From: Escherichia phage EJP2 | Length of the DNA stretch: 64,000 nucleotides | Sequence record: OQ411014.1 | Reading direction: 5' to 3' (one strand) | In this document: piece after piece, positions 9,373 through 47,727 of the stretch | Layout of the letters: each line of letters starts with the position of its first letter | How positions within the stretch are numbered: position 1 is the stretch's first letter | The notes under the pieces: model-generated | Databases searched by the model: none | What the model saw: the letters and a program-made list of their open reading frames with translations, nothing else | What the model was told of the DNA's origin: nothing | Program-made: the position numbers and the translations under genes

Positions 9373-9858
9373 ATGAATAATGATTTGTCGTATATAGAAA
9401 CCTTAAACTTAGCCAATGACTTACTCTTAATTCTTAGGGCATTTGATGCGGGTAAGCTGGATGGTTATAAGGATATCACTAAGCAGCTTATAGGTGATAC
9501 TACAACGGAATACTTTCTTGCAGGTGAACGTGTATGTTACGTCACTAATAAAGCATCCAATATATGGTCAAACGTAAGTCTCACTTCTGGTCGGATTCGA
9601 TACAATCAATTATATCCTCACTACCCTATAAAGAACAACGGCGAGATTACTAAGTGCGTCCCTGGGGATAAAATCTTTGAAGTGTCCGAAGAACAATTTT
9701 TCTATAACACACTCACACTCGATACTAGCTTACCAACGAGTGCACTTATCTTTGGAGTACTGTCTGGACACAAGTTTGAACACAACGCTGTGGGATTATA
9801 CTTCGACCTAGAGTATGTGGATATACTGGTTCTGTATGCTAAAGAGGTGTTGGCATGA
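9373..9858 (+). CDS. FQ-motif paralog family protein
   Basis: Motif VSEEQFFYNTL; RBS GGAG. Confidence 0.7.
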   Translation: MNNDLSYIETLNLANDLLLILRAFDAGKLDGYKDITKQLIGDTTTEYFLAGERVCYVTNKASNIWSNVSLTSGRIRYNQLYPHYPIKNNGEITKCVPGDKIFEVSEEQFFYNTLTLDTSLPTSALIFGVLSGHKFEHNAVGLYFDLEYVDILVLYAKEVLA

Positions 9859-10358
9859 GACTACGAGTAGAAGATTACTCTTATGATGAAGTTCTAAAGT
9901 TAGCCCACGATATACGTTTGATGATGAGTGCCTTTGATACTGGTCGGCTAGATGGTTATAAAGATATTCGCAGAGAAGACGTTGATGAAAAGACTGTGGA
10001 GTACTATATTGGGAACGATAGGGTCGCACATCTAAACAGATATGAATCAACTCTATGGAGTATGCTTATGCAGAAACATGGAACTATCAAACATAACTCT
10101 TTCGCTGCACACACTATGTTTGTTATCGACGCTGTGGTTCATGAACGTAAGCTAGATGATCCCATGTTTACTGTTTCGGAAGAACAATTCTTTTACAACA
10201 CTTTACAATATCCCAACAACACTGTTCCCGCTAGAGGTATTATTTTTGGTGTACTGAATGAACATACGTTTGATTACAATGAAATTACATTGAAATTCAA
10301 ATTACACCTAGATAAGATGTTAGCTTACTCACAAGAGGTTATGCATAATGCAATGTAA
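9855..10358 (+). CDS. FQ-motif paralog family protein
   Basis: Motif TVSEEQFFYNTL; ATGA overlap with upstream stop. Confidence 0.7.
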   Translation: MRLRVEDYSYDEVLKLAHDIRLMMSAFDTGRLDGYKDIRREDVDEKTVEYYIGNDRVAHLNRYESTLWSMLMQKHGTIKHNSFAAHTMFVIDAVVHERKLDDPMFTVSEEQFFYNTLQYPNNTVPARGIIFGVLNEHTFDYNEITLKFKLHLDKMLAYSQEVMHNAM

Positions 10359-10680
10359 CGTTATTATAAACACGTATTGTGAATCATATACACATCTTGG
10401 TGTTATGCGTTTTTCTGAACCAATGACGAATTATCTTATTCGCTATAACCACCGCAAAAATGAATGGGAACTTCGATACTATAATCCAAAAACATTGGAT
10501 GTGGAACAGATTGATGATACTATTGCTGTACTGTTGGACATGACTGAAGAAGAACTGTTCCAACATTCGTGCATTACTGATTTCGATGTCTACATGGTTC
10601 ACGCTGGTATGCAAGAGTTGAAACATAACACTCCCACAAGCTATAATTCCGTAATAACTAAGAAAACATTGGAGTACTAA
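10348..10680 (+). CDS. FQ-motif paralog family protein (short, divergent)
   Basis: Motif TEEELFQHS; 11-nt overlap ATGCAATGTAA. Confidence 0.55.
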   Translation: MQCNVIINTYCESYTHLGVMRFSEPMTNYLIRYNHRKNEWELRYYNPKTLDVEQIDDTIAVLLDMTEEELFQHSCITDFDVYMVHAGMQELKHNTPTSYNSVITKKTLEY

Positions 10681-11180
10681 TGAACACATTTGAAGAAGAT
10701 TTACAATTTGCTAACAAGGTGTTACGAATCCGAAATGCTATGATTACTGGTGAATTAAAAACTCTTCCAGGAGTGCATGAGCAGACCAATCCATTTCTTA
10801 ATGAACTGGATTTTTTATTCTTTGGAAATGTTGATTTAAGATCAGCACCGCTTGGATGTTTGACTTTTGAAAAAGGCGTTTCACGTTCTATAATTTCTCA
10901 AAGACATATATCATATAACACCAACGATGATAAGATTGCAGTTTTCAATGATGACCTTGAGAAATACGTTGACGTTGATATTGTTGATTACGATGAAAGC
11001 CTTTACTTTCAACACAGCCTGTTGTATACTCCTTGTGACTTACGTTACTTGGTTACTGCTTCTGTACTGAAGGCAAATGAAATTCCAGATAGACCAAACA
11101 TCCATCGATTCAAGTTTCAGTTGGTGCACATTCCAACAATTCATAAACTCTTGAGGTATAGAGACTATGGCATCATTTGA
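10680..11180 (+). CDS. FQ-motif paralog family protein
   Basis: Motif DESLYFQHSLLY; TAATG overlap. Confidence 0.65.
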   Translation: MNTFEEDLQFANKVLRIRNAMITGELKTLPGVHEQTNPFLNELDFLFFGNVDLRSAPLGCLTFEKGVSRSIISQRHISYNTNDDKIAVFNDDLEKYVDVDIVDYDESLYFQHSLLYTPCDLRYLVTASVLKANEIPDRPNIHRFKFQLVHIPTIHKLLRYRDYGII

Positions 11181-11646
11181 AGAAGATTACGCAGAAGCAA
11201 AAGATATCTGTACTGTTATGAAAGCCTTAGACACCAATCTGTTTGACAACCATAAAGAGATTATGACATTTCATAATGAATTCGAAACGATATATCAATG
11301 TTGGAATACAAGGTTCGCAGCAGTAAGTAAACATACTATTGGATATAAAAATAGCATTGACATTACAGGTAAACTGATTGACTATAGACCACATTCAGAT
11401 TCGTTTCAATATTTCAATTATGAAGATATGAAAGGGTATCTACTAAAAAAACACGACGCTGTATTCACCCCGACTGAAGAACAATATTTTCAAAATTCTA
11501 TTCTGTACGATCCAATCAATGTGAGAAGGTTTCTCATTTACGGAATACTAAATCAAGAAACTTTTGAGAACGAATTTATTCACTTGGACTACAACGTACT
11601 GAATCGTCTTGTACATCTTGCTAACGAGGCTAGAAATGCAACGTAA
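11167..11646 (+). CDS. FQ-motif paralog family protein
   Basis: Motif TEEQYFQNSILYD. Confidence 0.7.
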   Translation: MASFEEDYAEAKDICTVMKALDTNLFDNHKEIMTFHNEFETIYQCWNTRFAAVSKHTIGYKNSIDITGKLIDYRPHSDSFQYFNYEDMKGYLLKKHDAVFTPTEEQYFQNSILYDPINVRRFLIYGILNQETFENEFIHLDYNVLNRLVHLANEARNAT

Positions 11647-12223
11647 TGAATACACTGAATATACTGAATATACCGAAGTAGATGATGCTATTGATGTACC
11701 AGAGTACTGTTATAGTGATGATTTAAAGTACTGCTATGATATACTCAAGATAAAACACAACATGGAAATCCAGAGTCTACTCAAATTAGATGCATTTGAA
11801 CTATCAAGAATACAACAAAAGTCTATACAGTACGTTATGAAAACAGCCTTCTATGAAGAGTCAGGTCATAAGATCGGTATTGGCTCAGTACATAAGAATC
11901 TAAGAGTAGAAATGAGTTCACATCTAAGTATAACTTACTGTGTATTCGATAGTAGAAGTACAGTCTTCTCAGTACGTGACTATAAAGGACGTTATCCTAT
12001 ATCAGATACAGTACTATCAGAAGAACAGTACTTTCAACTTAGTCTTATTCATGATCCTTATCTTCTAAGAGCAATGTTACTTTATTCTGTACTTAAAGCT
12101 AATTCTAATCTAGAATCATCATGTGAGTACTCTCAAATCAATTTAGCTTATAATAGTTCAGTACTGAAATATATTGATACCCTAGATACCCTAGATACTC
12201 TTGGGGCAGAAGAAACATTATAA
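11636..12223 (+). CDS. FQ-motif paralog family protein
   Basis: Motif SEEQYFQLSLIHD; ATG 11636 (11-nt overlap) preferred over listed 11609. Confidence 0.6.
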   Translation: MQRNEYTEYTEYTEVDDAIDVPEYCYSDDLKYCYDILKIKHNMEIQSLLKLDAFELSRIQQKSIQYVMKTAFYEESGHKIGIGSVHKNLRVEMSSHLSITYCVFDSRSTVFSVRDYKGRYPISDTVLSEEQYFQLSLIHDPYLLRAMLLYSVLKANSNLESSCEYSQINLAYNSSVLKYIDTLDTLDTLGAEETL

Positions 12224-12247
12224 TAACATTTATAACAATCATATAAC

Positions 12248-12814
12248 ATGGTGAGAAGTATGGTCATATCTACAGTAGATGCAAACAGATACAAGTTGGA
12301 GTCACTATTATTCGATGAAGTGAGTTACTCAAAGCACAAACGATTTTGTACTGCCATGTGTACAGTACTGAAGGTTATTGCTACAGGAGAGATAGAGAAG
12401 TACAAGGGTATTACTAAGACTAGGCATTTAGGAATGGGGTGTACATACTACTATAACGATTTTAACTTCTGTAGTGTTGATATGTTAACACCAGATGAAG
12501 AGGATTATTCTGTTGTGATGTTAGGTTCATGTAGGGTAGTACTGTTCAATGATTACAAGGATTTAATATCTGTAGATAACGATTATAAAGAGATTATCAT
12601 TCCTAGTACATCTAATTTACTGATACCTACAGAAGAGCAGTACTTCCAGAATTCATTACTCTATGACAGAGCGTATCATCTGTGTAAATTCTTATTATAT
12701 GGATCTATCTTGCAATTGAACTTACAGTACTGTAGTATAGACTTCAGATACAACCAAGTGTTTGAGCTTGAGGAACTAATACTCAAAGGTGATTATAGTG
12801 AACAATATCAATGA
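12248..12814 (+). CDS. FQ-motif paralog family protein
   Basis: Motif TEEQYFQNSLLYD. Confidence 0.7.
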   Translation: MVRSMVISTVDANRYKLESLLFDEVSYSKHKRFCTAMCTVLKVIATGEIEKYKGITKTRHLGMGCTYYYNDFNFCSVDMLTPDEEDYSVVMLGSCRVVLFNDYKDLISVDNDYKEIIIPSTSNLLIPTEEQYFQNSLLYDRAYHLCKFLLYGSILQLNLQYCSIDFRYNQVFELEELILKGDYSEQYQ

Positions 12815-13349
12815 TAATGAATCATATACTGAAGCTACACAATTAGTACAAGATGTGTTATTAGTAGTACAGTATCTTATGAATTCAGAGTTCAAGGATA
12901 GTGCATTGAAACACACTATCAATGAAAGGAGTTTCTCATCAAGAATGACATCATTTGTATTTGATGTGAATAGAGGATTGGGTCGTACTGTTTACGAGAA
13001 GACTGTTGCTACGTTAAGGTCAGCAGTAGGGGGGACCAATGAGTTGAGGATTACTGCTAACGCTATTCAGTACTGTACAAGTTCTAATACTGTATGTGTA
13101 TATAAAGATGAAGATTCAAGATATCAAAAGTACAGTCCTATTGATTTTGATGATTATTCAGAAGAGAGATATTTTCAGACCTTATTGATGTACGATGAAG
13201 TTTATGCTAAGAACATGCTTGTAGCTTCTGCGATACAGAAGTACATTCCAGAGATCATGCGTTCACGTAATTATAAGGAGTTAACACTTACTGTGTTCCT
13301 TGATGATTTGCTTGAATTAGCTAATATTATAAAGGAAACACAACAATGA
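12789..13349 (+). CDS. FQ-motif paralog family protein
   Basis: Motif SEERYFQTLLMYD; GTG start, exact start uncertain. Confidence 0.55.
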   Translation: MIIVNNINDNESYTEATQLVQDVLLVVQYLMNSEFKDSALKHTINERSFSSRMTSFVFDVNRGLGRTVYEKTVATLRSAVGGTNELRITANAIQYCTSSNTVCVYKDEDSRYQKYSPIDFDDYSEERYFQTLLMYDEVYAKNMLVASAIQKYIPEIMRSRNYKELTLTVFLDDLLELANIIKETQQ

Positions 13350-13968: not shown

Positions 13969-14535
13969 ATGAGCGACGATTTAGTACAGAAGATTAGTTC
14001 CACAGTTCATGTATTGAAGTTTATGCATAATTTACAAACACAGCTAATACAGGACAATATCATTCCTGGTATTTTTTCATTAGAATTGAATAAAGAATTC
14101 AAGATAACATATGTAGATTATGATAAGTCATGTACATTGAAATTAATGTACGCACCATCAGTGCATTCTGCGTTTGCTAATCAGCAACTTGATGTTGTTG
14201 TGTTAACAATATCGAAATCAGACACATCCCCAGAGTCATCTTATTCACCGCAGCATTACCTCATTTCGAATAAAGATACACAAAGAATCAAGACCACAGC
14301 ATACAAGAATGCACAGGAATGGATACCAATTATTCCTAAGAGCGAGCTTGATTTGAGTACAGAAGAGGCAGATTTTCAGTACAGGATGATTTACGACGAT
14401 GTAGTACTTGATATGTTGAAATTCGTTCAGGCAGTTCAAGATGAAGTGTACGTAGATTTTTGTACATTTTTATCTCCAGTAATATACAGAGCACATGAGG
14501 CAATTGTACGATATGAAAATAAAATTAGAATTTGA
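13969..14535 (+). CDS. FQ-motif paralog family protein
   Basis: Motif LSTEEADFQY; ATG 13969 preferred over TTG 13960. Confidence 0.6.
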   Translation: MSDDLVQKISSTVHVLKFMHNLQTQLIQDNIIPGIFSLELNKEFKITYVDYDKSCTLKLMYAPSVHSAFANQQLDVVVLTISKSDTSPESSYSPQHYLISNKDTQRIKTTAYKNAQEWIPIIPKSELDLSTEEADFQYRMIYDDVVLDMLKFVQAVQDEVYVDFCTFLSPVIYRAHEAIVRYENKIRI

Positions 14536-15139: not shown

Positions 15140-15866
15140 AGCAAAAGTAATCCAGTACAGTCATGTTCACGCAGTGAAGTTGGCATTTGTATTGGCTGTT
15201 ACGGAGTACATATATCAGTACGGGGATTTTTCGTCAGATAGTGCATATAATGTTACGAAATATGATTATCCAGGAGCCAAAGGTGATGCATTACGATTCA
15301 GGGATGCATTTATCACATACGATTCATTGAATAATAAATCCGTATATGGTTTCAAGGCATTCATTGGAAATGACCTAAATGTCAAGAACAAGATGATAAT
15401 GTTCAAGGCGTACGTTCACAGTCCTGAAGATCCAAATGTACCAATGCGTAGTACAGCATTCAATGCACATCCAGATTGCGATTCAGTCCTGTACACACAG
15501 GATTCGATAGTATACAATTCATTATGTAATGAAATGCAAGTCCAGGGTGAAGAAATCAGTGTTCCAGTACGATTCAGTACGAAAGTTCTTGACGAGGCGA
15601 AATATTTCCAGTACAGTACATGTATGACGGATACACAAATTTACAGTGCATACATCAAGTCCTATCTTGATAAGTACGATTTGTGTAGTTTCACATGCAG
15701 ACACGAAGTACAGGATAAGTTATTTGATGTATATTTCGAGGACAATTTTGAGTTCGAGGATTACCCGTCGAAGGATGCCAGTACTGAGCAGATTGAAATG
15801 TACAATAAAGTCCTAGTGCTTTTAGATGAAGTTATTGCTTTAGGAGTTGACATACACAGGATGTGA
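15105..15866 (+). CDS. FQ-motif paralog family protein
   Basis: Motif EAKYFQYSTCM. Confidence 0.6.
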   Translation: MMHTDTAVTTDKAKVIQYSHVHAVKLAFVLAVTEYIYQYGDFSSDSAYNVTKYDYPGAKGDALRFRDAFITYDSLNNKSVYGFKAFIGNDLNVKNKMIMFKAYVHSPEDPNVPMRSTAFNAHPDCDSVLYTQDSIVYNSLCNEMQVQGEEISVPVRFSTKVLDEAKYFQYSTCMTDTQIYSAYIKSYLDKYDLCSFTCRHEVQDKLFDVYFEDNFEFEDYPSKDASTEQIEMYNKVLVLLDEVIALGVDIHRM

Positions 15867-15913
15867 TGTTATAATGCAAAAATATACCCCACGATATAAA
15901 GAGAGAATATATA

Positions 15914-16810: not shown

Positions 16811-17179
16811 ATGTTAGATCATGATTTTCGGTTGCACACACATATAGTCCAGGGTGTATATCATTTTTATTGTAACGTACATAAAGGTGATACCAGTCAT
16901 AGAAGGCACGTATATATTTCTTATCTTAATGGTGCGTTTTCGTTCATTAGTTATGAGAATTATAAGTACGGTTCTCGGACAGATCATCCTATGCAGGATT
17001 ATACAGTACTGGATGAGGGTGGGAGATTTCAGGCAGAATTAGTGCTTGATGCAAATTCTGTTCTTACATTAGATGAGATTATTTTCATTCAGAATCTAAT
17101 GAAAGAGTTCTCGGTGCGTGCACAAAATTCTGAAGAATTTGAACACGATTACTATTTCAATATAGGAATTCCATCATGA
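16811..17179 (+). CDS. FQ-motif paralog, 120-aa subfamily copy 1
   Basis: Motif EGGRFQAELV; ATG 16811 preferred over GTG 16802; GC-rich leader upstream. Confidence 0.6.
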   Translation: MLDHDFRLHTHIVQGVYHFYCNVHKGDTSHRRHVYISYLNGAFSFISYENYKYGSRTDHPMQDYTVLDEGGRFQAELVLDANSVLTLDEIIFIQNLMKEFSVRAQNSEEFEHDYYFNIGIPS

Positions 17180-17535
17180 CATATGATTTTTTCTTACATG
17201 CTTACAAAGGAAAAGGTATCTATCAGTACTATTGCAATGTCAATAAAAATGACATAAAATATAATCTGAACGAATTCATCTTTTACGTACAAGGTGTGTT
17301 TAAGTTTGTGGACTACAGTAAGGATATTCAACATGATAGAAGTGATATGTTAGATTATTCAGTACTGAATGAAGCTGAACTCTTCCAAGCAGAAGTAGCT
17401 TATAATTTGGAGTACATTCTTCCATTGCACGAAATTGCTGCTATCCAGAGAACAATAAAAGAGTTTGCCAGTACTGTAAATGTATCAGATGACACTAAAA
17501 AAGAGTACTATTTCAATATAGGAATTCCATCATGA
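17176..17535 (+). CDS. FQ-motif paralog, 120-aa subfamily copy 2
   Basis: Motif EAELFQAEVAYN; N-terminus MTYDFFLHA; ATGA overlap. Confidence 0.7.
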   Translation: MTYDFFLHAYKGKGIYQYYCNVNKNDIKYNLNEFIFYVQGVFKFVDYSKDIQHDRSDMLDYSVLNEAELFQAEVAYNLEYILPLHEIAAIQRTIKEFASTVNVSDDTKKEYYFNIGIPS

Positions 17536-17888
17536 CATATGATTTTTTCTTACACGCTCATAAACACAAAGGTTTTTATCAGTACTATTGTAATGTTCAT
17601 AAAAATGATACCATGCACAGTATGGACCATTATATCAATTACTCAGAAGGGAAGTTTCAATTTCTGGACTACGGTATTGTATCTAAACCATATCGTGATA
17701 TGATAGATTATTCAGTACTGACAGAGGCTGAACTATTCCAAGCAGAAGTAGCTTATAACAGTGAGTACATTCTTACGTTGGATGAAGTTGTTGCTATCCA
17801 GACTATAATGAAAGAATATGTCCAGAATGTACCTGATCCAGCGGAAACAAATGATCAGTACTTTTTCAATATAGGGAATCCAGAATGA
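17532..17888 (+). CDS. FQ-motif paralog, 120-aa subfamily copy 3
   Basis: Motif EAELFQAEVAYN; junction DNA identical to previous copy. Confidence 0.7.
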   Translation: MTYDFFLHAHKHKGFYQYYCNVHKNDTMHSMDHYINYSEGKFQFLDYGIVSKPYRDMIDYSVLTEAELFQAEVAYNSEYILTLDEVVAIQTIMKEYVQNVPDPAETNDQYFFNIGNPE

Positions 17889-18253
17889 CAGAGAATAGTT
17901 TTGATTTTTCATTGTTCGTATCAGTGTATGAAGAAATATATTGCAATCTCATCAAAGGTGATATTGAGCATAACAAGTCAACATTCATCAAGTACAAAAA
18001 ATCTACATCTACATCTGCATTTACATTTAGATTTGTAGATTACGATAATAATCAAAGAATGCAACCTATACAGGATTATACAGTACTGAATGAGGCTGAA
18101 AGATTTCAGGCAGCGTTGGTATATGAAGAAAAGTATCTCGTTACTATGGATGAAATGATTGCTATCCAACAAGAAATAAAAAATCACGTAAAAGAGTACG
18201 GTATGAGTTCAGTACTGGGTAAGAGATTACATTTCAATATAGATAAGGAATAA
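17885..18253 (+). CDS. FQ-motif paralog, 120-aa subfamily copy 4
   Basis: Motif EAERFQAALVY. Confidence 0.7.
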   Translation: MTENSFDFSLFVSVYEEIYCNLIKGDIEHNKSTFIKYKKSTSTSAFTFRFVDYDNNQRMQPIQDYTVLNEAERFQAALVYEEKYLVTMDEMIAIQQEIKNHVKEYGMSSVLGKRLHFNIDKE

Positions 18254-18256: not shown

Positions 18257-18904
18257 ATGAAACAATTCAGTGCAGAAGAAGTAGGAGAAAGTGTAGCGTT
18301 CTTACTTTATGTTTTGCGTAATTTTGGGTTTCATAAGTTATTTGAATTTATTCCTGATGTTGTTGAACATGTTACATCTAAAATTCGAATTGTATATGAT
18401 TTTTCAGATACCTCTTGTATTGCAGTTAAATCAGCAGATTATAATTCTATCTTGGATGTGAATCGGATTGCATTACAAAATGGTGTAGTAGTACAGAGTG
18501 GTGATTATGTGAATGTATACTCAAGTTTTGGATACTTGTATAACATTTCTGGTGCAGGGCAGGATACGAATTGCAGAGTTAACGAACGTCAAGCTGCAAG
18601 ATATGCTCGGAATTTTGATTTGGATATTTCTTCCGAAGAAGATATGTTCCATTTAACTGTTGGCAATAGTAGCAATGAAACTATTAGGGGTGTAGAGATT
18701 TATCGCACCATAATGAACTCAAAGTTCAGTACTGATATGATTCGTGCTATGAGTGCTGATGATGTTAGTCGTATGCCTAAATCCAAAGAGTTAGCTGGTT
18801 CGTACTTCAGATTATATCATAGGAATTTCGAGACGTTTCTTAGTACTGATAACCATTACAACCTTATACTAAAGGGGATGACTTCAGATGAATTCAAAAT
18901 TTGA
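18257..18904 (+). CDS. FQ-motif paralog family protein (divergent)
   Basis: Motif SEEDMFHLTV. Confidence 0.6.
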   Translation: MKQFSAEEVGESVAFLLYVLRNFGFHKLFEFIPDVVEHVTSKIRIVYDFSDTSCIAVKSADYNSILDVNRIALQNGVVVQSGDYVNVYSSFGYLYNISGAGQDTNCRVNERQAARYARNFDLDISSEEDMFHLTVGNSSNETIRGVEIYRTIMNSKFSTDMIRAMSADDVSRMPKSKELAGSYFRLYHRNFETFLSTDNHYNLILKGMTSDEFKI

Positions 18905-19487
18905 TTCTTTCGGAGAAACTATAATTGATGCATTAGATACTGCTAGTCTTATTAATGCGTTATTCATTGATAAAGATGCAGTATCTGAAATTATAAAAAG
19001 TAATCCCAATTATAAAGTTTGCTGGAATAGTTCAATCCTGAATGAAGACAAAAGTGAAGGGGATACTATTTCATTGCGTCATTCTATGCGTCATTCAGAA
19101 TCCTTTGTGAGTGGGCGTGATTTATACCTCAATCCTTTTTATGATACGTTGATTGATTACTCTGGATTTGGTCAAGTAGGTGAATTTCCCATCCCTGAAG
19201 TACATACACTTACACCTGAACTATTCTTCCAGTACAGTACAATTTATACAGATATAAACATCAAAGCATTGACATATGCTTCAGTACTGCGAGAGATTGC
19301 AGCAGTGGACGTACCTGAAAGATATTGGTTACAAGGGGTATTGAACTGTACCGTAAGATTTGATAAACTACATAACTTATTGGTGTATCTTCGTAATGAG
19401 AAGCACAGAGAAGTCAGACATATGAGAGGATTATTGTTATGCCCAGAGACAATACAGAAGATTGTATCTATAGCTCATTTAAACTAA
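18888..19487 (+). CDS. FQ-motif paralog family protein
   Basis: Motif TPELFFQYSTIY. Confidence 0.65.
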   Translation: MNSKFDSFGETIIDALDTASLINALFIDKDAVSEIIKSNPNYKVCWNSSILNEDKSEGDTISLRHSMRHSESFVSGRDLYLNPFYDTLIDYSGFGQVGEFPIPEVHTLTPELFFQYSTIYTDINIKALTYASVLREIAAVDVPERYWLQGVLNCTVRFDKLHNLLVYLRNEKHREVRHMRGLLLCPETIQKIVSIAHLN

Positions 19488-20033: not shown

Positions 20034-21248
20034 ATGAGTGAATCAACAGCTAATGAAAATATTCAGGAATTATTGAGTAATATCCCTCGACTAAAAGAAG
20101 AGATTCAACTCATTAAGGACTGTATTGTTCTTTATTCGACCGTGCTTACAGAGCATGAAAACTTGCTGTGCTTACCATTTGATACTCCTTACATTACTCT
20201 AAATGAGTACATTCTGGAATTAGGGTTTAGTAATTCATTCTTACGTATAAAGGAATGTGACTTCTCCCCGACTAATGCTGCGTATTGCAGTTCTGAAATG
20301 GGTAAAGGTGAAGAAACATACATTATGTTGTGTGACGAAAGTGCATGTACTGAAAAAGTACTCTACACTACTCACCAATCAAGTTCACTCACAGCTACAC
20401 ATGAATTATCTCGATACGATTTCAGTACTGAAGCATCTCTAGAACACGCTGTATTCGATTCTATGCTACGTTTTGAATCACCCATAACAGTGTATACTAA
20501 CTTAGTTTATGCTGCTGTACGTGACGTTCTGGAGCATTCTAACCTATTTGCAGTGATTACTTCGGACGTTGGTTCGTTGTTCAGTACTGATAACTTACCG
20601 GAAATGCAGTTAGTCCAGGGTGAGATTGAAAAGATATCCAGACAAGTCAAAGCAGAGAATGTAACGTTCACAAGGGCGTGCAAGAATCGTGAAAAGTTAT
20701 ATCCGTTGATTGATAAAATTAGTCATCTCTATCATAATGAAGACGAAGAGACTGAACTCGAAACTATCAGAACTGAGTTGTACTTGGGTCATAAATTGCA
20801 TACACATTTCAAAGTAAAAGATAATCTTCTTACCTTGAATATTTCTGTTGATGATACTGAAGTACTGAAATATGTACTAGAAGAGCGACCTTCTCTTACT
20901 ACTAATGGTAGTACTAACAAATTGATTTGTACTGATGGTGAGAATTTTAGTGTTCACTCGGAACGTTCTATGAGTAGGAATGTATTTGATTTTTCTTATA
21001 CACACGATGATAAAACGTTCAGTACTAAAAAGTACAATTTAGAACATTTCGATGAAGAGCATTACAGTACTTTAGAAGATGTACCAGAAATGGATCAGGT
21101 ATTGCGTGTTCAGAATGAGTTCAGTAAGAGACTCTTCATGAAGCGTGGATACATTATGGACTTGTGTTTCTATGAAGTTCCTGCTGATATTGGTCAGAAT
21201 ACATTCCGAGAGATTTGTATGCGACTACGAGATTCTTTGACAATTTAG
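20034..21248 (+). CDS. hypothetical protein, enlarged possible family member (404 aa)
   Basis: ORF track; divergent HAVFDSMLRF...LVYAAV segment. Confidence 0.6.
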   Translation: MSESTANENIQELLSNIPRLKEEIQLIKDCIVLYSTVLTEHENLLCLPFDTPYITLNEYILELGFSNSFLRIKECDFSPTNAAYCSSEMGKGEETYIMLCDESACTEKVLYTTHQSSSLTATHELSRYDFSTEASLEHAVFDSMLRFESPITVYTNLVYAAVRDVLEHSNLFAVITSDVGSLFSTDNLPEMQLVQGEIEKISRQVKAENVTFTRACKNREKLYPLIDKISHLYHNEDEETELETIRTELYLGHKLHTHFKVKDNLLTLNISVDDTEVLKYVLEERPSLTTNGSTNKLICTDGENFSVHSERSMSRNVFDFSYTHDDKTFSTKKYNLEHFDEEHYSTLEDVPEMDQVLRVQNEFSKRLFMKRGYIMDLCFYEVPADIGQNTFREICMRLRDSLTI

Positions 21249-21258: not shown

Positions 21259-21287
21259 TTGACGGGTGTTGTGCTTTCGGGTACAAT
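21259..21287 (+). promoter_or_regulatory. sigma70-like promoter with palindromic spacer (operator-like)
   Basis: -35 TTGACG, 17 nt, -10 TACAAT; inverted repeat CGGGTGTTGT..ACAATACCCG spans -35 to -10. Confidence 0.5.
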
Positions 21288-21320
21288 ACCCGTTATTCGT
21301 TTATAGAGAGGAATAAAATC

Positions 21321-21944: not shown

Positions 21945-22521
21945 TAAGTTAGGGGTATTGATTGATATCCTACATCGTTCAATACTGAAGTCTAAGGGGT
22001 ATATAATCTTAGGACACTCTAAAGTACTGGATAAACGAATTGCTTTTCGTTATAGTAAAGTTCTAAATGACATAACTGTAGTGGCTGAAGATGTTGATCC
22101 AGATGATAGTTCTCTGGTACTGTCTAGGATTAAACTCATTGGTATTCCTATTGACAACAACACTGCTAGTTATCGTGGGATATATGCAACCGACCGCTTC
22201 ATCTCGTGGAGATCTCAAGAACAAAGTTGTGATGAATTCTACCACAGGAGTACTGATGAGTTCATGACTATGTATCCCAAGAGTGAAGTACTGAAGATTA
22301 TGACTGACACAGATTATGCGGAGTGTCATAAGTTCAGTGCTTTGTTGCAGATGGATGAACTCCTTTATATACAGCGTGTAGTACTGTCATGGTTAGGGTC
22401 TAAAGATAGAAACGAAGGATACGTCATCGCTGACAATTCCATTCTCAACGAAGATGTAGTTCAAGAGATAATTGGTCTATTTGATAAAGAACTGGAGAAG
22501 TACGATGAATATAACAAATGA
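21934..22521 (+). CDS. hypothetical protein (195 aa)
   Basis: ORF track; 11-nt overlap ATGTTATGTAA. Confidence 0.6.
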   Translation: MLCNKLGVLIDILHRSILKSKGYIILGHSKVLDKRIAFRYSKVLNDITVVAEDVDPDDSSLVLSRIKLIGIPIDNNTASYRGIYATDRFISWRSQEQSCDEFYHRSTDEFMTMYPKSEVLKIMTDTDYAECHKFSALLQMDELLYIQRVVLSWLGSKDRNEGYVIADNSILNEDVVQEIIGLFDKELEKYDEYNK

Positions 22522-23059
22522 AATCAAAGTACTGAAATTATTGGAGAAAGTACTGAAAAGTTCCAAGAGTACTGAAATTGAGTTCTGTACTTTTTCCAGG
22601 TCTTTTGTATGTCATGAACTCCCTGGTATGGAACTCCTGGTTACTAAAGGTTTAGTTCGTGTAGTACAAGATAAGATTACTGCGGTAGCTTGTATTGTGG
22701 AGAGTTCTTATTCCCCTCCTAGTACGATTGGTGATAACGGTACTTTTATTATTAGTTCAGCATACGAGAATGTACGAGATAATTCATTGAAGGATGTAGT
22801 TCTTCCCGCTTCTCTTGAAAATTTAGATTTCAATGCCGAAGAAGAACTACAAGGCGTATTCTTTCAGTACTGTACAGTAGTAGATGAAGTTACGGCACTG
22901 GGTGTTGTTGTACATAATTACTTCAAGCAGTATCATGTGTACAATCCTGATGAGTGTAATTGCTGTACTTATTCACGTTGGGTCACAAGAAATGATGGCT
23001 TTAGTGATGAGTTTGTGTTAGCATTACAGAAAATACAGGAGGAATTCTATGTTTGTTAG
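22505..23059 (+). CDS. FQ-motif paralog family protein
   Basis: Motif GVFFQYCTVVD; ATG 22505 preferred over 22472. Confidence 0.55.
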   Translation: MNITNEIKVLKLLEKVLKSSKSTEIEFCTFSRSFVCHELPGMELLVTKGLVRVVQDKITAVACIVESSYSPPSTIGDNGTFIISSAYENVRDNSLKDVVLPASLENLDFNAEEELQGVFFQYCTVVDEVTALGVVVHNYFKQYHVYNPDECNCCTYSRWVTRNDGFSDEFVLALQKIQEEFYVC

Positions 23060-27065: not shown

Positions 27066-27094
27066 TTGACAAGCATTGTATCTTCGGGTACAAT
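27066..27094 (+). promoter_or_regulatory. sigma70-like promoter with palindromic spacer (operator-like)
   Basis: -35 TTGACA, 17 nt, -10 TACAAT; perfect inverted repeat AAGCATTGTA..TACAATGCTT. Confidence 0.55.
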
Positions 27095-27117
27095 GCTTTT
27101 TTTATAGGAGAAATACT

Positions 27118-27756
27118 ATGATTTCGTATGAGTTTTTTGTAGGTGTTTCGAAGATTACTACTGAACTTCTAAATGTATATCGATACATGTTCGATAATAA
27201 TGATACGTTATTGTTTCAGGATTTTGACGCTGAGGATCATGATTCAGGATTTGTATTGGAGTTCTATCCACGACGCATATGCTTCTCGGATATTGTTGAA
27301 AGTTATAATACCTTACTGTCTATAACTCCATCAGAAAGTGCCCACGCGATATACAAAGGAACTATGTCCGATGAAAGGTCCATAATTACAGTTTCTGATG
27401 CAAGGTCGTGTGATTTTATACATTTATCCCACTACAGTGCTCTTACAAAAATCAATAAGAATACGCCTATTCCTTCTTTCAGTACTCCAAGTACAGCAGA
27501 AGAATTTGAGCAGACAGCGTTTCAGTTGATGATGTTATACGAAGAAGATGTAGTTGATTTATTTTTACTGAACAGTTATGTTGGGCCATTACTTGAAGGT
27601 ACTTCTATGAAATTCTTCAGTGCTACTAAGTTGTACTACCTTAGTCCAGTGGACTTGAATAACATGCTAGTGTTACTCCAAGAGCAATTCAAGAAAATAC
27701 TCCAATATAAAGAGGCGAAGAATGATTACTTACGACAAGTGCAAAGCTATCAGTGA
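27118..27756 (+). CDS. FQ-motif paralog, MISYEKC subfamily copy 1
   Basis: Motif EQTAFQLMMLYEED; ATG 27118 preferred over TTG 27076 which lies in the promoter. Confidence 0.65.
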   Translation: MISYEFFVGVSKITTELLNVYRYMFDNNDTLLFQDFDAEDHDSGFVLEFYPRRICFSDIVESYNTLLSITPSESAHAIYKGTMSDERSIITVSDARSCDFIHLSHYSALTKINKNTPIPSFSTPSTAEEFEQTAFQLMMLYEEDVVDLFLLNSYVGPLLEGTSMKFFSATKLYYLSPVDLNNMLVLLQEQFKKILQYKEAKNDYLRQVQSYQ

Positions 27757-29529: not shown

Positions 29530-29558
29530 TTGACAAGTGTTGTATCTTAGGGTACAAT
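29530..29558 (+). promoter_or_regulatory. sigma70-like promoter with palindromic spacer (operator-like)
   Basis: -35 TTGACA, 17 nt, -10 TACAAT; near-identical to 27066 promoter. Confidence 0.55.
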
Positions 29559-29592
29559 GCTTTTAATTAATAATTAACGAGGATTTCTTATA

Positions 29593-29985
29593 ATGATTTT
29601 GTATCATGCCAGTACTGTTAGGATTGAAAAGTTCTATATCCCATTTGGTGGCTTACACTTAGGTGGTCTGTACTCGTCCTTAGAAGCAGCCTTACGCAAG
29701 CTCAGGAGCGATTCTAACACTAATAACGATGAAACTGTGTACTTGCATAGGTGTGAAGTTGACCTCGGTAGAATCGTTTCTATGGATGATTTGGGTAGTG
29801 ATGACGAATGGCGAGCGGTTTTCAGTACTGACTATGATTCAGTTAAGTACGTAAATAAGTTCGAGCCGGATGTGCAAGCATCTTATATGCTATGGGATGC
29901 ATCTAGAGTACAAATTATTGATGTTGATCCTATTCATATGGATGACGCAGAGGATATGATAAATGAGTTTTTGGAAGAGCAATGA
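29593..29985 (+). CDS. hypothetical protein (130 aa)
   Basis: ORF track; RBS GAGGA. Confidence 0.6.
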   Translation: MILYHASTVRIEKFYIPFGGLHLGGLYSSLEAALRKLRSDSNTNNDETVYLHRCEVDLGRIVSMDDLGSDDEWRAVFSTDYDSVKYVNKFEPDVQASYMLWDASRVQIIDVDPIHMDDAEDMINEFLEEQ

Positions 29986-30535: not shown

Positions 30536-30990
30536 ACGTATTAGGTAACATTGATGTAGTAAATGATATCGTTCAGGAAGGCATTCAGGGCGTTCTAGGA
30601 CGTTCTATTAGTGTAAGGAGTGGTTTGTACCAGGGTGATGGATATGCTGTTGACAGTACTAGTAAGGGGTCTGCTAGTATGACTTTTCGTGTACGCACGC
30701 AGAACTTACAGACTTTATGTACAATTTCATTGAGTCGTAAAGATATCATCATTCGTTACAATCATAAGTTCTGGTTCAAGGTGAATTTAAAAGATGGCTT
30801 AGTCAGTACTTCATTGTTCGATGAGCCGTTTATGCTACAGGAAATCAAGACAGCATTTGAGATTCAAAGCAACATTGGTTTGGGTTTACCATTGAAAGTT
30901 GAATTCGATTGTGATAAGCTGATTCAAACTATTCTTTTATGTGGGAGTTTACATGGTTCCTTTATATCGTATATTTCGATGCTTGAATAA
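30529..30990 (+). CDS. hypothetical protein (153 aa)
   Basis: ORF track; 7-nt overlap. Confidence 0.55.
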   Translation: MLDVLGNIDVVNDIVQEGIQGVLGRSISVRSGLYQGDGYAVDSTSKGSASMTFRVRTQNLQTLCTISLSRKDIIIRYNHKFWFKVNLKDGLVSTSLFDEPFMLQEIKTAFEIQSNIGLGLPLKVEFDCDKLIQTILLCGSLHGSFISYISMLE

Positions 30991-31486
30991 GAAAAAGAAA
31001 ACTACACTCAACGATGTACTACGTATCATTAGTTGTTCTAAAATGCTCAGTTCTGTGTGCTTATACAGTGGTCCAACTGTTTCACGTGCAGAACATAAAG
31101 ACGGTACTATCTATCGAATCGATGAGTCATACAAGACTGGTATTTCTTACAAGAACTTCAGAATACAGTTCGAAGAAACTCGTAGCCATTCTGGGTTTAC
31201 TATCAAGACTGCGAATTTATCTGAAGCAGCTAACAATCCGAACTTAGTGTATAACTTCCGAATCTCTAAGGATTTGAATACACTAGAAGTACTGAACATT
31301 GACAGAGGTCAACAGACTGACTTACCTGCATTTGATATCAGTAAAGAAATTACTGAAGATGTTGTATTTCAGTTCGAGTTAGTGTATCCTGAATTAGCTG
31401 TCAGTACTGATGTGCTGTTTGCATTCGTAAAGAAATTCCAACTACAAAACAAAGGTATATCAGAAGATGAGCATTTCCAGTATTGA
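30953..31486 (+). CDS. FQ-motif paralog family protein
   Basis: Motif TEDVVFQFELVYPE; second motif EDEHFQY at the stop; ATG 30953 with RBS GGGAG. Confidence 0.55.
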   Translation: MVPLYRIFRCLNKKKKTTLNDVLRIISCSKMLSSVCLYSGPTVSRAEHKDGTIYRIDESYKTGISYKNFRIQFEETRSHSGFTIKTANLSEAANNPNLVYNFRISKDLNTLEVLNIDRGQQTDLPAFDISKEITEDVVFQFELVYPELAVSTDVLFAFVKKFQLQNKGISEDEHFQY

Positions 31487-33845: not shown

Positions 33846-33874
33846 TTGACATTGTATCTGCACTTTGATATAAT
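33846..33874 (+). promoter_or_regulatory. sigma70-like promoter
   Basis: -35 TTGACA 33846-33851, 17 nt, -10 TATAAT 33869-33874. Confidence 0.55.
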
Positions 33875-36736: not shown

Positions 36737-37476
36737 TTTGAGCATTCATAAAAAAATGTGATATAATTAGTACTACGGATGGTTAGCTATCCGTATTTTA
36801 AATTTGAATGACCAGTACTACATACTGGTACGTTTTAACCCTGATTCACTCGAAAATGTAGAGGACAGTTGAGTACGCATTCAAGTACGTTCAGCAGAAG
36901 AAACCCGTTAGGTGTAGGCATAGTTTGTACCTCCCACGGCAATGTGGCTGATTAAACCATGAAGAGTAATACGATGACTCATGGCTTGCTTATGGCATGA
37001 TAGACATATAAGGATCGCTCCTTACCAAAATGTATAAGGGAATCTTATAAATTTTTGTAGGACTGATTAGAGGCTTACCCTTGATCCGTCCAAAATTTGA
37101 AGATACAGTACAGTACTGTTTATGTGGTAATGTATTGATGCGTGCTAAGACCACGACCGTTGCATAGAAACGCGATAGGAAGAAACAGGGCAACCCGCTT
37201 CCGTTCTTAATAGAAATTCGTAACATAAAATGATGACACATACCAGCGTCAAACTTTGTTCTTCCCTCCCTGTGGGGGGATGAAAATGAATCTACAAAAC
37301 CTCGTCAAATAATAATAAGAAAGTACTAAATCAATTAGAACGAACGCTAGTGAGTGATAATTGATTTAGTAACAGTAACGCTTCGCTAGAAGTGTTACTC
37401 GTTGTTTAAGAATAAAATAACTTAGTGAGTTTTGGTTCTTTTGTTGTTCACTAAGTCCCTATAGAGAGAATATTAG

Positions 37477-40222: not shown

Positions 40223-40788
40223 ATGCCGCAGAGTTTGTTAGAGCACTTGTTGGTTTAGCTAAAGTGAAAACTTATAGAGGAAATATCACTAAATCAAATT
40301 CGCATTTTGTTCCACGTAATGGTCGTGAACATCTATTCGTTGATTCATTACTCATCAAGGGTATCGATGCATATGAAGAAATATACATTTCTATAGATAT
40401 GTGTGATGGATTCTTGAATTCCATTGCAGTTCATACAAGAAATAGATATACTCATTTCTCTATGTACAGAAAAACGGCATACACAGAGTATGATAAGTAC
40501 GCAATGGAAGAAACCTCCCCAGGGCGTTTCCTTATGCTTTTTCACAATGAAATTACCGAGCGTGATTTAATCATGAATCACAAGGGTGAATTTATTGTGC
40601 ACATGGACAATGAAAGTGAAGTGTTCAGTACTTTATTAGTACATAACTTCGATATAGAAAAGTACAGAGAAATTCATGAAACCTATAAGTGCATTGATGA
40701 ACTTAAAACTGACCTCTCATTCAGTACATATGATACTAATTGTGGTCTGAATTTCGCAGCACTATATCAAATTATATGGAAGGCATAA
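40219..40788 (+). CDS. FQ-motif paralog, VHDFD subfamily
   Basis: Motif ESEVFSTLLVHNFD; ATGA overlap. Confidence 0.65.
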   Translation: MNAAEFVRALVGLAKVKTYRGNITKSNSHFVPRNGREHLFVDSLLIKGIDAYEEIYISIDMCDGFLNSIAVHTRNRYTHFSMYRKTAYTEYDKYAMEETSPGRFLMLFHNEITERDLIMNHKGEFIVHMDNESEVFSTLLVHNFDIEKYREIHETYKCIDELKTDLSFSTYDTNCGLNFAALYQIIWKA

Positions 40789-41309
40789 TGACTGCACTAA
40801 ATGATTTCATGACTCTCAGTACTGAAATAGTATCTTCTACAAAGGGAGAAATCACAATCCCCCGTGATGATGTATATATTATACTAACACCAGGAATAGC
40901 AGAGTCCATAAAAGTATACGAAAATAATGATTCTTTACAAGTACTGTACATGCCACAAGATTATCTTTTTGTAAATTCTGATTTTACTTTACATCAATTT
41001 CCTACGTATAGTAATTTTCAACAACGTTTCCCAAGTGATAAAACAAAAGAAATAAAATACGTACAGTACGATAATAGTTTTAAAAGTCGTACTCATTTTA
41101 TCGCTTTAGAAACTGAAGAAGATATATTCAATGCTATGATAGTACATTCATTTGATATAAACGCAGCACTAGAATTGATGAGTGTATTGACTGAAGTACC
41201 GGAAGATGTAACAGGTATTATTACTATAAGAACTAAGTACAATGAAGAATTGTTACTAAAGTGCAACAGTATGATGCGAGATTATATTAGTAATAAGGAA
41301 AACACATGA
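40788..41309 (+). CDS. FQ-motif paralog, VHDFD subfamily
   Basis: Motif EEDIFNAMIVHSFD; ATG 40788 (TAATG overlap) preferred over TTG 40740. Confidence 0.6.
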   Translation: MTALNDFMTLSTEIVSSTKGEITIPRDDVYIILTPGIAESIKVYENNDSLQVLYMPQDYLFVNSDFTLHQFPTYSNFQQRFPSDKTKEIKYVQYDNSFKSRTHFIALETEEDIFNAMIVHSFDINAALELMSVLTEVPEDVTGIITIRTKYNEELLLKCNSMMRDYISNKENT

Positions 41310-46506: not shown

Positions 46507-46515
46507 ATCAATTAT

Positions 46516-46545
46516 GCAGTACTGCGATTGTAGTACTGCTTTTTT
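46516..46545 (+). terminator. rho-independent terminator
   Basis: Stem GCAGTACT..AGTACTGC followed by TTTTTT; stem built from the AGTACT palindrome. Confidence 0.6.
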
Positions 46546-46556
46546 CTGGAGATGCT

Positions 46557-47111
46557 ATGAATAATCTTGAGTTCGTTAAACACTTGGCTAATAAAGTTGA
46601 TACAATCGCACAGAAACATATTGACACTCAAAGTTCAATACCTATAAAATTAGCGATTCCTCATGATAATATGGAACTGTTCGATAGATTCTTTTCTGTT
46701 CGAGGCCGCCACGATAAAGATAGATATCTTTTACTCGACACTGACCGGAATGCTTTTCAGTACTCAACACCTACGTTTCCTGGAATTTTCATGAAAGTGT
46801 CTGATGGATTGTACCTTACGTACTCACCACCAGATATATCACAGACTATGATTGGATTGGATTCTAGGGTATTACTATTTCAGCCACGCAATCCAAGTGA
46901 TGTATATGATCCGTATGAATTCTTGACTGAAGAAATGCACTTCCAGGCATCTACAGTACTGGATATTCCGAGCATAGAAACTCTAAGAGAAATGCTTGAT
47001 ATTGTTGAGTTTTTGATTGAAAGTGAATTCAAATTTAGATGTTCAATGGACTACGATGATTACCAGAGTATTCAGATTGGTCGTTTTTATAATTACGCAA
47101 TGCAGGAATAA
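46557..47111 (+). CDS. FQ-motif paralog family protein
   Basis: Motif TEEMHFQASTVLD; RBS GGAGATG. Confidence 0.65.
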   Translation: MNNLEFVKHLANKVDTIAQKHIDTQSSIPIKLAIPHDNMELFDRFFSVRGRHDKDRYLLLDTDRNAFQYSTPTFPGIFMKVSDGLYLTYSPPDISQTMIGLDSRVLLFQPRNPSDVYDPYEFLTEEMHFQASTVLDIPSIETLREMLDIVEFLIESEFKFRCSMDYDDYQSIQIGRFYNYAMQE

Positions 47112-47115
47112 CCAA

Positions 47116-47727
47116 ATGAAGAATCTAGATAAATTTGAAGACCTTATCAGTACTGCAAAAGCGTTCGGGTATTATAATTTCATCCAACGCTTTGGCCTCA
47201 AAGAAGAAAGTAACCGTTTCTGTAAAGTATATCGTGGTATCTGTACTGAAGATTCGGAGTATCAGTTCTTGATTGGAACTATGCGTTCTAGTGGTGGGAT
47301 TACATACATCGTTGAAGATAATAAAACAGGTGAGTACTTGAACATGTTCGCTCTTCGGGCAGAAGGTGAATCTGAACTTACTGCGATGTTTAAAGACTGG
47401 ACACGACTATCATACAAATACGATAAGTTCAACATCTACAACTACGAAACCAAGAAGATGGAAGTTGTACCGAACATTGACATGTCTGAAGATGAACATT
47501 TTCAGTTCATGCTATTGCATGATATTCCAGATTATGATACAGTACAGTCAGTACTGAAATATCATAAAGAAGTTTCACCAATGCTCAAAGAACATAAGCT
47601 ATTCAATATCATCACGTACACGATGCCTGATTTTGATTTCACAAAGATGAAAATCAAACCTGAAGTAATTGACACGTGTATGGATTTGATACCTGAATCA
47701 TCTTTATACAAACACAAGGATATATAA
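47116..47727 (+). CDS. FQ-motif paralog family protein
   Basis: Motif SEDEHFQFMLLHD; ATG 47116 with RBS AGGAAT preferred over listed 47017. Confidence 0.6.
   Translation: MKNLDKFEDLISTAKAFGYYNFIQRFGLKEESNRFCKVYRGICTEDSEYQFLIGTMRSSGGITYIVEDNKTGEYLNMFALRAEGESELTAMFKDWTRLSYKYDKFNIYNYETKKMEVVPNIDMSEDEHFQFMLLHDIPDYDTVQSVLKYHKEVSPMLKEHKLFNIITYTMPDFDFTKMKIKPEVIDTCMDLIPESSLYKHKDI

Follow-up and report, generated by a model that had tools for sequence, protein, structure and literature searches.

The stretch of DNA considered here (the window) comprises 64,000 nucleotides of the genome of Escherichia phage EJP2 (sequence record OQ411014.1). Positions 9373 to 47727, an interval of about 38 kb, hold about 44 genes that are arranged head to tail and that encode versions of one small protein domain. 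The members cover 23 kb of the 38-kb interval, and they encode mildly acidic proteins of 110 to 253 amino acids (aa), with a median pI of 4.9. All of the large open reading frames (ORFs) of the window are on the + strand, and the G+C content is 35-40%. The array occupies the putative early region, upstream of genes for a Dam methyltransferase, a cytidylyltransferase, an RNA ligase, a polynucleotide kinase and a DNA ligase.

An all-versus-all BLASTP comparison of the window ORFs links only small groups of 8, 4, 4, 2 and 2 ORFs. However, an iterated profile hidden Markov model (HMM), seeded with the eight BLAST-linked ORFs of the subfamily A group, grew until it stopped at 41 ORFs, with two to five of 2260 shuffled decoys passing the inclusion threshold per round. 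A broader profile, in which members from phage 121Q and from metagenomes were included, gained one more ORF, and two others are members by orthology, as their reciprocal-best orthologues in Erwinia phage Hallingskeid match the profile. This brings the total to 44, and six further ORFs are borderline (Table 1). Aligned singly to the family profile with hhalign, the borderline ORFs gave probabilities no better than those of shuffled decoys, and an HMM of the motif alone gained no extra members. An earlier note on this DNA, made from the sequence alone, had counted about 45 to 50 paralogues, which was a fair estimate. The members and the borderline ORFs all lie within the interval. The same note had nearly every ORF of the interval belong to the family, which fails between 29.6 and 39.1 kb, where most genes are unrelated to it and one element is non-coding. 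The genes of that stretch that lie outside the family, among them those for the Dam methyltransferase and for a cytidylyltransferase-like protein, have well-conserved counterparts in Hallingskeid. The possibility that the motif matches would be no better than shuffled controls was also checked. The decoy-controlled profile is confined to the interval, where 42 of the 67 + strand ORFs are profile members, versus none of 46 outside it (Fisher p = 1e-13), and the family stands.

Five subfamilies had been proposed. Those at 9.4-13.3, 16.8-18.3 and 27.1-29.5 kb are recovered by BLAST, as is the 40.7-41.8 kb portion of the one placed at 39.1-41.8 kb, whereas the genes at 43.9-47.7 kb are joined by the profile only. 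Some duplications are recent and particular to the window, namely 9373/9855, the pair 17176/17532 in subfamily C (16811-18253), the block 27118-29528, and 40788/41306.

The feature that unites the members is a motif with the consensus [ST]-E-E-x-x-F-Q-x-S-[LT]-[LV]-[YH]-D, located at 0.57-0.82 of the protein length, which agrees with the earlier placement about two-thirds along the protein. The Phe is present in 41 of the 41 window members, and the Gln and the first Glu in 34 of 41 each. The Phe is also invariant in wider alignments from several phages (92/92 and 77/77 sequences, and 99/99 in a set from four sources). The Gln is conserved in at least 90% of the 99-sequence set; the Ser and Asp are frequent. 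At its 3' end (31450-31486), gene 30953-31486 encodes the motif a second time in truncated form, GISEDEHFQY followed by the stop codon. This copy is almost the same as the motif that the last family gene has at about 47480, SEDEHFQFMLLHD, and it resembles the trace that a deletion or a recombination between paralogues would leave.

Table 1. Family genes, borderline candidates and promoters of the array (positions in the window)
Feature	Position	Strand	Remark
Sigma-70-type promoter, TTGACT-16-TATAAT, 11/12	9299..9326	+	47 nt upstream of first family gene
Member, subfamily A, 161 aa	9373..9858	+	Input of AlphaFold2 model 1
Member, subfamily A, 167 aa	9855..10358	+	
Member, short, 110 aa	10348..10680	+	
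Member, subfamily A, 166 aa	10680..11180	+	
Member, subfamily A, 159 aa	11167..11646	+	
Member, subfamily A	11636..12223	+	Likely ATG start 11636 (start from translation); 11-nt overlap ATGCAACGTAA
Member, subfamily A, 188 aa	12248..12814	+	
Member, subfamily A, 186 aa, GTG start	12789..13349	+	
Member, subfamily B, 196 aa	13346..13936	+	
Member, subfamily B, 188 aa counted from ATG 13969	13969..14535	+	
Member, 214 aa	14495..15139	+	
Member, 253 aa	15105..15866	+	
Perfect sigma-70 promoter, TTGACA-17-TATAAT with TG	15847..15875	+	
Borderline candidate, 246 aa	15914..16654	+	Profile E 0.095
Member, short, subfamily C, 122 aa	16811..17179	+	
Member, subfamily C, 119 aa	17176..17535	+	
Member, subfamily C, 118 aa	17532..17888	+	Input of AlphaFold2 model 2
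Member, subfamily C, 122 aa	17885..18253	+	
Borderline candidate, 215 aa	18257..18904	+	Motif-like SEEDMFHLTV
Member, 199 aa, BLAST link to subfamily A	18888..19487	+	
Member, 197 aa	19439..20032	+	
Borderline candidate, 404 aa	20034..21248	+	One motif-like stretch near residue 150
Promoter-like repeat, TTGACG...TACAAT	21259..21293	+	Sequence family of promoters 27066 and 29530
Borderline candidate, 207 aa	21321..21944	+	Profile E 0.096
Borderline candidate, 195 aa	21934..22521	+	Profile E 0.023
Member, 184 aa counted from ATG 22505	22505..23059	+	
Member, 204 aa	23049..23663	+	
Member, 208 aa	23673..24299	+	
Member, 154 aa	24274..24738	+	
Member by orthology, 190 aa	24735..25307	+	Hallingskeid orthologue profile match 3e-4
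Member, 216 aa	25308..25958	+	
Member, 198 aa	25931..26527	+	
Member, 176 aa	26532..27062	+	
Sigma-70 promoter, TTGACA-17-TACAAT	27066..27094	+	
Member, subfamily D, MISYEFF start	27118..27756	+	
Member, subfamily D, 202 aa	27722..28330	+	
Member, subfamily D, 199 aa	28327..28926	+	
Member, subfamily D, 201 aa	28923..29528	+	
Sigma-70 promoter, TTGACA-17-TACAAT	29530..29558	+	Precedes non-family gene 29593
Member, 190 aa	29963..30535	+	Best-conserved orthologue, 61% identity to Hallingskeid
Member, 177 aa	30953..31486	+	C-terminal second truncated motif SEDEHFQY
Member by orthology, 153 aa	31467..31928	+	Hallingskeid orthologue profile match 2e-5
Perfect sigma-70 promoter	33846..33874	+	Within non-family block
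Member, 173 aa	37477..37998	+	Positional orthologues in Hallingskeid and CBB (CBB_71)
Borderline candidate, 205 aa	39061..39678	+	Motif EESASQAMFIHD without Phe
Member, 183 aa	39671..40222	+	
Member, 189 aa	40219..40788	+	
Member, subfamily E, 173 aa counted from ATG 40788	40788..41309	+	
Member, subfamily E, 176 aa	41306..41836	+	
Member via broader profile, 172 aa	42116..42634	+	E 0.001
Member, 229 aa	43877..44566	+	
Member, 207 aa	44557..45180	+	
Member, 179 aa	45177..45716	+	
Member, 184 aa	46557..47111	+	
Member, 203 aa, last in array	47116..47727	+	Adjoins RNA ligase gene; positional orthologue of 121Q gene 436

Two members were modelled with AlphaFold2. The first gene of the array, with an alignment of the 41 paralogues only, gave a model with a predicted local distance difference test score (pLDDT) of 94 and a predicted template modelling score (pTM) of 0.88, in which an N-terminal helix is followed by seven antiparallel strands, then by the motif helix (residues 106-115) and another helix, and finally by one strand and a C-terminal helix. 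The 118-aa member (pLDDT 82, pTM 0.77) is predicted to have five strands, the motif helix, the second helix and one strand. Both models, built from the paralogues only, are confident and show the elements in the same order. They suggest a compact alpha/beta domain with a common core that consists of an antiparallel beta-meander of five to seven strands, a short motif helix, a second helix and one strand, to which the longer members are predicted to add an N-terminal and a C-terminal helix. Among solved structures, the predicted fold has no significant structural neighbour. Among the viral models in BFVD, Foldseek found 12 hits at E <= 1e-3, with TM-scores up to 0.66, and all of them are uncharacterised proteins of Rak2-like phages, the named ones being from GAP32, 121Q, SP27 and Yersinia phages fHe-Yen9-03 and fHe-Yen9-04; hits with weaker E values came from RaK2, Erwinia phage pEa_SNUABM_47 and Serratia phage BF. 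The predicted model therefore shares its fold with a 121Q/Rak2-like superfamily, whose profile is also matched by 41 to 42 of the window ORFs.

The motif had not been recognised as a known domain, and the databases bear this out. In Pfam-A and NCBIfam, no entry had matches from several members; the best E values, about 1e-3, are noise and stay short of the gathering cut-off. PADLOC, which models defence systems and not their inhibitors, and a sequence profile search of the PDB gave no match for the family. In PHROG, 22 of the 41 members match families 12674, 13866, 15629, 16210, 32531, 22855, 19795 or 31297, all of them listed as 'unknown function', and the other 19 match none. These PHROG families are pieces of the same superfamily drawn from GAP32-, RaK2- and 121Q-type genomes, but there the superfamily is split into unrelated-looking groups, with neither the unifying motif nor the fold recorded. 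A tblastn search of 50,697 phage records with one member found no match; it takes a profile to detect the family. When 1.84 billion cluster representatives were searched with a profile, only 78 hits at E <= 1e-3 came back. About half of these were the phage's own genes, and the others were on contigs of about 350 kb and were all named 'hypothetical'; one such metagenome contig is itself a tandem array. A 99-sequence profile run against 5.8 billion proteins gave only 15 hits, none of them annotated. Near-identical proteins are present on public read-assembly contigs. Homology to anything named was not found in the domain, PHROG or protein searches. An ADP-ribosyltransferase identity, similar to T4 Alt, ModA and ModB, was considered and set aside; the ART fold and the R-S-E or H-Y-E motifs were not found in the family.

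By megablast, the window resembles the 350-kb jumbo myoviruses of the 121Q/Rak2 group at 73-79% nucleotide identity, over the DNA ligase/protease region only, and the closest record by protein is that of Hallingskeid, with an RNA ligase that is 60% identical. The 3' part of the window encodes RNA ligase 1, polynucleotide kinase, an ATP-dependent DNA ligase, a ClpP-like protease and dCMP deaminase. The gene order is common to the window, 121Q, phAPEC6, vB_Ec-M-J, Hallingskeid and CBB. In 121Q, the window-derived profile matches at least 41 ORFs in the syntenic part (genes 349-408, 435 and 436), and it matches 41 in phAPEC6, 39 in vB_Ec-M-J, at least 36 in Hallingskeid and 10 on one metagenome contig. 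CBB (positions 1-50000) has only about seven members, directly after its 22.5-kb terminal repeat, and none was detected in the first 50 kb of PA5oct, which span the terminal repeat. Copy number in related phages, a check suggested with the original observation, hence varies from about seven to 41 or more. In Hallingskeid (positions 352724-366158), the array extends to the end of the linear record; together with the position of the CBB array, this places the family near the genome end in these records.

An array of this type has been noticed before, so the novelty implied at the outset is lower than assumed. Hua et al. 2017 (mBio; PMC5646251) devoted one sentence to a paralogue array in 121Q, and a 2026 review (PMC13282480) repeats the statement. 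We infer that the sentence refers to the homologous 121Q array, in which BLAST single linkage of the region gives clusters of 24, 5, 3 and 2 genes, in keeping with their count. The RaK2 paper remarks in general that about 10% of the RaK2 proteins are paralogues, and the CBB paper counted 22 paralogous ORFs. Apart from such general remarks, a description of the motif, fold, regulation or function of the family was not found in the literature, and the phage transposon-sequencing preprints that were found cover other phages. The array in the window is a strongly diverged new example of a known but uncharacterised array type.

The earlier note described the family as diversifying. This is true between genera, where the family diverges and turns over faster than its neighbours and differs in copy number; within a genus, however, its genes are under purifying selection. 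For 34 orthologue pairs of 121Q and vB_Ec-M-J, omega (dN/dS) has a median of 0.235 and a range of 0.06-0.56, compared with 0.04-0.12 for nearby enzymes. The median indicates that the family genes are functional and constrained, and gene-wide positive selection was not seen. Some of the 121Q/vB_Ec-M-J pairs are diverged far beyond their flanks, with 41-59% identity and a synonymous divergence (dS) above 1, versus a dS of 0.3-0.7 for flanking enzymes. In addition, six of the 41 genes have no orthologue in this comparison, and the longest unbroken match to the array in near-identical Asteriusviruses spans only 55-73% of it. Taken together, these observations point to replacement of cassettes. Against Hallingskeid, a reciprocal orthologue is BLAST-detectable for only 12 of the 41 members, at a median identity of 30%, and 24 have no BLAST match, whereas 40 neighbouring non-family genes have a median identity of 51%. 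All four subfamily D genes (27118-29528) have the same Hallingskeid gene as their best match. Clear cross-genus orthologues are few (subfamily C and 121Q genes 367-369; the last gene and 121Q gene 436), but they show that the family is older than these genera. The family grew by local tandem duplication and was reshuffled by cassette replacement, and it is a real, ancient and clade-restricted superfamily of one small domain that is constrained and yet diverges fast.

The family genes form overlap-coupled operons behind near-consensus sigma-70 promoters. Among the junctions are 13 ATGA overlaps and four overlaps of 11 nt, three of which are ATGCAATGTAA, ATGTTATGTAA and ATGCAACGTAA, the last at 11636. 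The coupling by ATGA overlaps and the three 11-nt overlaps that the earlier note had listed are there; the 11-nt class is not special. Promoters that match at least 11 of 12 sigma-70 positions number 20 on the + strand and two on the - strand, versus 2.0 +/- 1.3 in shuffled sequence, and 12 of the 20 are intergenic and located 32-55 nt upstream of a gene, including those at 9299, 15847 and 27066. The same strand bias occurs in CBB, 121Q and Hallingskeid, and the authors of the CBB paper likewise read such promoters as early (PMC5259590). Neither strand of the window contains the T4-type late box TATAAATA, of which shuffles lead one to expect 7.0 +/- 2.6 per strand; this fits a box that serves as a late signal and that an early region avoids. 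The sigma-70-type promoters and their strand bias, together with the missing late box, lead us to infer early transcription by the host polymerase, and the array is probably expressed early. Phage phAPEC6 has a sigma factor gene of its own. A common 35-nt sequence, TTGACAAGnnTTGTATCTTnGGGTACAATGCTTTT, occurs at 21259-21293, 27066-27100 and 29530-29564 with 69-91% identity, and so promoters appear to have been duplicated along with gene blocks.

The proteome of the phAPEC6 virion contains 62 proteins, none of which falls between gp348 and gp548. The family homologues in this phage are gp404c-gp460c, and so these homologues are not part of the virion; an internal head protein role found no support among them.

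What, then, might more than 40 copies of such a domain do? On balance we favour, with moderate confidence, the idea that they are early cytoplasmic host-interaction proteins built on a shared scaffold. Host sigma-70 RNA polymerase would transcribe the array in the first minutes after infection, in long operons whose genes are coupled in translation, and the products would remain in the cytoplasm. They would constitute a panel of binding proteins in which a conserved core displays variable surfaces, with the helix that carries the invariant Phe-Gln probably belonging to the core and packing on the sheet. The host factor or defence component that is bound would differ from paralogue to paralogue, and the panel would adapt takeover and host range to varied hosts. 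A role in host takeover or anti-defence is suggested because the promoters are of early type, the homologues are absent from virions and the arrays of near-identical phages vary as mosaics. A bolder version is compatible with these observations but unlikely. It holds that the family is a new class of host-takeover or anti-defence effectors with a fold that lacks a solved relative, that more than 40 early paralogues each disable a different host factor or immune system, that the Phe-Gln helix is the mechanistic element common to all, as a docking site for one host hub or as a conserved inhibitory wedge, and that duplication and cassette exchange set the host range of these broad-host jumbo phages.

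Several observations weigh against a host-interaction role. No annotated homologue of the family was found, and the role rests on context. With omega below 1 over whole genes, an arms race is not apparent, and the retention of 35 of the 41 genes as one-to-one orthologues within Asteriusvirus also fits housekeeping in the phage cycle. The conserved polar residues E, E, Q, S and D may not belong to a structural core at all but to a site at which the paralogues bind a common ligand or partner; that the Phe is buried is an assumption, and the early timing is read from a promoter consensus. PA5oct is a relative for which RNA-seq exists, but with no detectable member in its first 50 kb, a transfer of the timing by homology failed.

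The polar residues are also the starting point for an unlikely alternative, in which the proteins are adaptors for a common hub. An exposed E-E-x-x-F-Q-x-S helix would dock one partner, such as the host RNA polymerase, the ribosome or a protease (for example, a phage ClpP-like one), and the variable sheet would select the cargoes, so that one machine is turned to many targets. The only strongly conserved positions are indeed clustered and largely polar (E and Q each in 34 of 41), and a gene for a ClpP-family protease lies 8 kb downstream, at 55942-56634. However, the motif is predicted, with very high confidence, to be a helix inside a compact domain, where an invariant aromatic residue belongs to the core more often than to an interface, and no partner was identified.

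It is also rather unlikely, in our judgement, that the family consists of non-virion proteins of the phage's own cycle, for example chaperones or scaffolds for the compartments of replication, transcription or assembly, each paralogue being specialised for one phage client. Such a role would explain why orthologues within Asteriusvirus are one-to-one, in order and under purifying selection, and why the array is interleaved with conserved genes of unknown function that are 62-80% identical to those of Hallingskeid. More difficult to explain would be a copy number that ranges from about seven in CBB to 41 or more in phages with the same virion type and core genes, and the 24 of 41 members without a detectable counterpart in the closest phage; core functions seldom allow such freedom.

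The hallmark of poly-immunity loci, which reportedly include the SUKH and Imm families described by Zhang, Iyer and Aravind, is a tandem array that encodes small alpha/beta proteins of very diverged sequence. We therefore considered whether each paralogue neutralises a different toxin, from a host abortive-infection or toxin-antitoxin system or from the phage itself, and find this improbable. The family has no significant structural match, the array contains no toxin-like or toxin-domain gene, and PADLOC and Pfam give no signal. The one gene in the array with a suggestive relative, 29593-29985, is a homologue of the putative ADP-ribosyltransferase of phage ph0011 and is single-copy with its own promoter.

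This non-family gene deserves a short description. It encodes a 130-aa protein with the N-terminus MILYHAS..., its promoter is at 29530-29558, and its product is 80% identical to the Hallingskeid orthologue, belongs to phrog_11632 and has no Pfam match. The ph0011 homologue annotated 'putative ADP-ribosyl transferase' corresponds to 121Q gene 404. Another unusual ORF is the borderline candidate 20034-21248, which is double the normal length and matches nothing in Pfam or PHROG. Two family domains may have fused in it, or it may be an insertion unrelated to the family.

A virion-associated function, as internal head or ejected proteins or as parts of 'hairy' fibres, is disfavoured and very unlikely. 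Paralogous families do occur in the head and inner body of phiKZ (PMC12676376), and 121Q-like virions have unusual fibres and an inner body (PMC7247149). However, none of the 62 phAPEC6 virion proteins is a homologue, and the region has sigma-70-type promoters and lacks the late-type box.

Equally disfavoured, and harder still to credit, is the notion that the motif is a protease cleavage site in processed precursors, E-x-x-Y-F-Q|x-S. The TEV protease site is E-N-L-Y-F-Q|S, and one member reads DESLYFQHS, but this resemblance of the consensus is all that speaks for it. The AlphaFold2 models place the motif in a well-ordered helix and not in a linker, neither a Tyr at P3 nor a small residue at P1' is conserved, and no 3C or NIa-type protease was seen in the window.

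The DNA of the window has a word bias of its own. The palindrome CAGTACTG occurs at 107 sites in the 64 kb (for example, at 17004, 17360, 17713 and 18081), versus 0.7 expected from base composition, a 148-fold excess. AGTACT occurs 301 times versus 21 expected, GCGC is absent versus 73 expected, and TTAA and GATC are 3.7-fold and 2-fold under-represented. Because CAGTACTG is present in all three reading frames (9, 42 and 42 sites) and between genes (14 sites), selection acts on the DNA. The word signature is common to 121Q, vB_Ec-M-J, Hallingskeid and CBB, each of which has no GCGC, but not to PA5oct. Cyanobacteria have a comparable pattern in their highly iterated palindrome, HIP1 (PMC4390886), and CAGTACTG could be a site for protein binding, modification or self-marking. 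The octamer was not found in the literature searched.

The bias also bears on the weakest of the alternatives, namely, that there is no real family and the motif recurs by chance or through genome-wide DNA words such as AGTAC and CAGTACTG. AGTAC does stand beside the Phe codon in 28 of 41 members, versus 15.1 +/- 2.9 at random positions, a consequence of the codons for F-Q-Y and F-Q-x-S-T, but the word is spread over the whole window and the protein motif is restricted to the array, so word bias was rejected as the origin of the motif. With the decoy-controlled profiles, the confinement to the interval, the confident models from a paralogue alignment, the cross-genome profile matches (41 in 121Q) and the purifying selection all against it, this reading is refuted.

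The array also contains a gap of 740 nt without ORFs (36737-37476) that holds a candidate structured RNA of about 470 nt, with its core at 36843-37308. The element is 67-82% identical in nucleotide sequence across 70 Rak2-like phage genomes, whereas the flanking proteins are only 25-40% identical between the window and Hallingskeid. It has its own conserved extended -10 promoter, TGTGnTATAAT (-10 box at 36762-36767), after which come a covarying hairpin and a U-run. For 10 copies, RNAalifold predicts 70 pairs in 15 helices, closed by GAUGAG...CUCGUC, with 94% of cells paired. Compensatory changes occur at 31 pairs, versus 16.1 +/- 2.4 in shuffles (0/500) and two to eight in slid controls, and the many G-U pairs indicate that the + strand is the RNA strand. 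The single-sequence minimum free energy z-score is only -1.4. CBB and a 366-kb IMG/VR contig have at least two full copies each, the second ones away from family genes. The element is not in Rfam 15, and an account of it in the literature was not found.

Until now the family has had no name, domain entry, fold assignment or phenotype. The present results add one defined superfamily with an invariant Phe-Gln as a mutation target, a confident model, orthologue groups and a likely early timing, and turn 'hypothetical proteins' into a testable set. Should these be host-interaction proteins, they would offer a large and so far unused supply of inhibitors that act on bacterial functions or defences, and they may help to explain the large genomes of these phages, which Hua et al. 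2017 had asked about. Should they serve housekeeping instead, they would still be an unusually clear case of phage genome growth by tandem duplication.

Among known systems, the 121Q array is the nearest. It contains the homologous superfamily at the same position and in the same head-to-tail, overlap-coupled layout. Nevertheless, only 13 of the 41 window genes have a BLAST hit to 121Q at E < 1e-3, and most are beyond the reach of BLAST. Hua et al. gave no motif, fold, expression or function for that array.

The phiKZ head and inner-body proteins (gp92-97, 153, 162 and 163; PF12699) are likewise a large paralogue family of a jumbo phage, and they are partly dispensable gene by gene (PMC12676376). 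The phiKZ proteins are virion components processed by the head protease, whereas the present family is absent from the phAPEC6 virion and has early-type promoters.

Large eukaryotic DNA viruses have multigene families, such as MGF110, MGF360 and MGF505 of African swine fever virus (ASFV) and the host-range and Bcl-2-like families of poxviruses. These resemble the array in having tandem diverged paralogues near the genome end, variable copy number, early expression and a conserved scaffold with variable surfaces, although for the phage array the early expression and the scaffold are predictions. There is no sequence or fold relation, and the host here is a bacterium; the likeness is one of organisation only. 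Phage T4 has clusters of small, non-essential early genes behind strong sigma-70 promoters, which share with the array the host-polymerase promoters, the tight packing, the ATGA overlaps, the mostly unknown functions and a presumed role in host adaptation. However, the T4 early genes are mostly unrelated to each other, while here one domain has been multiplied more than 40-fold.

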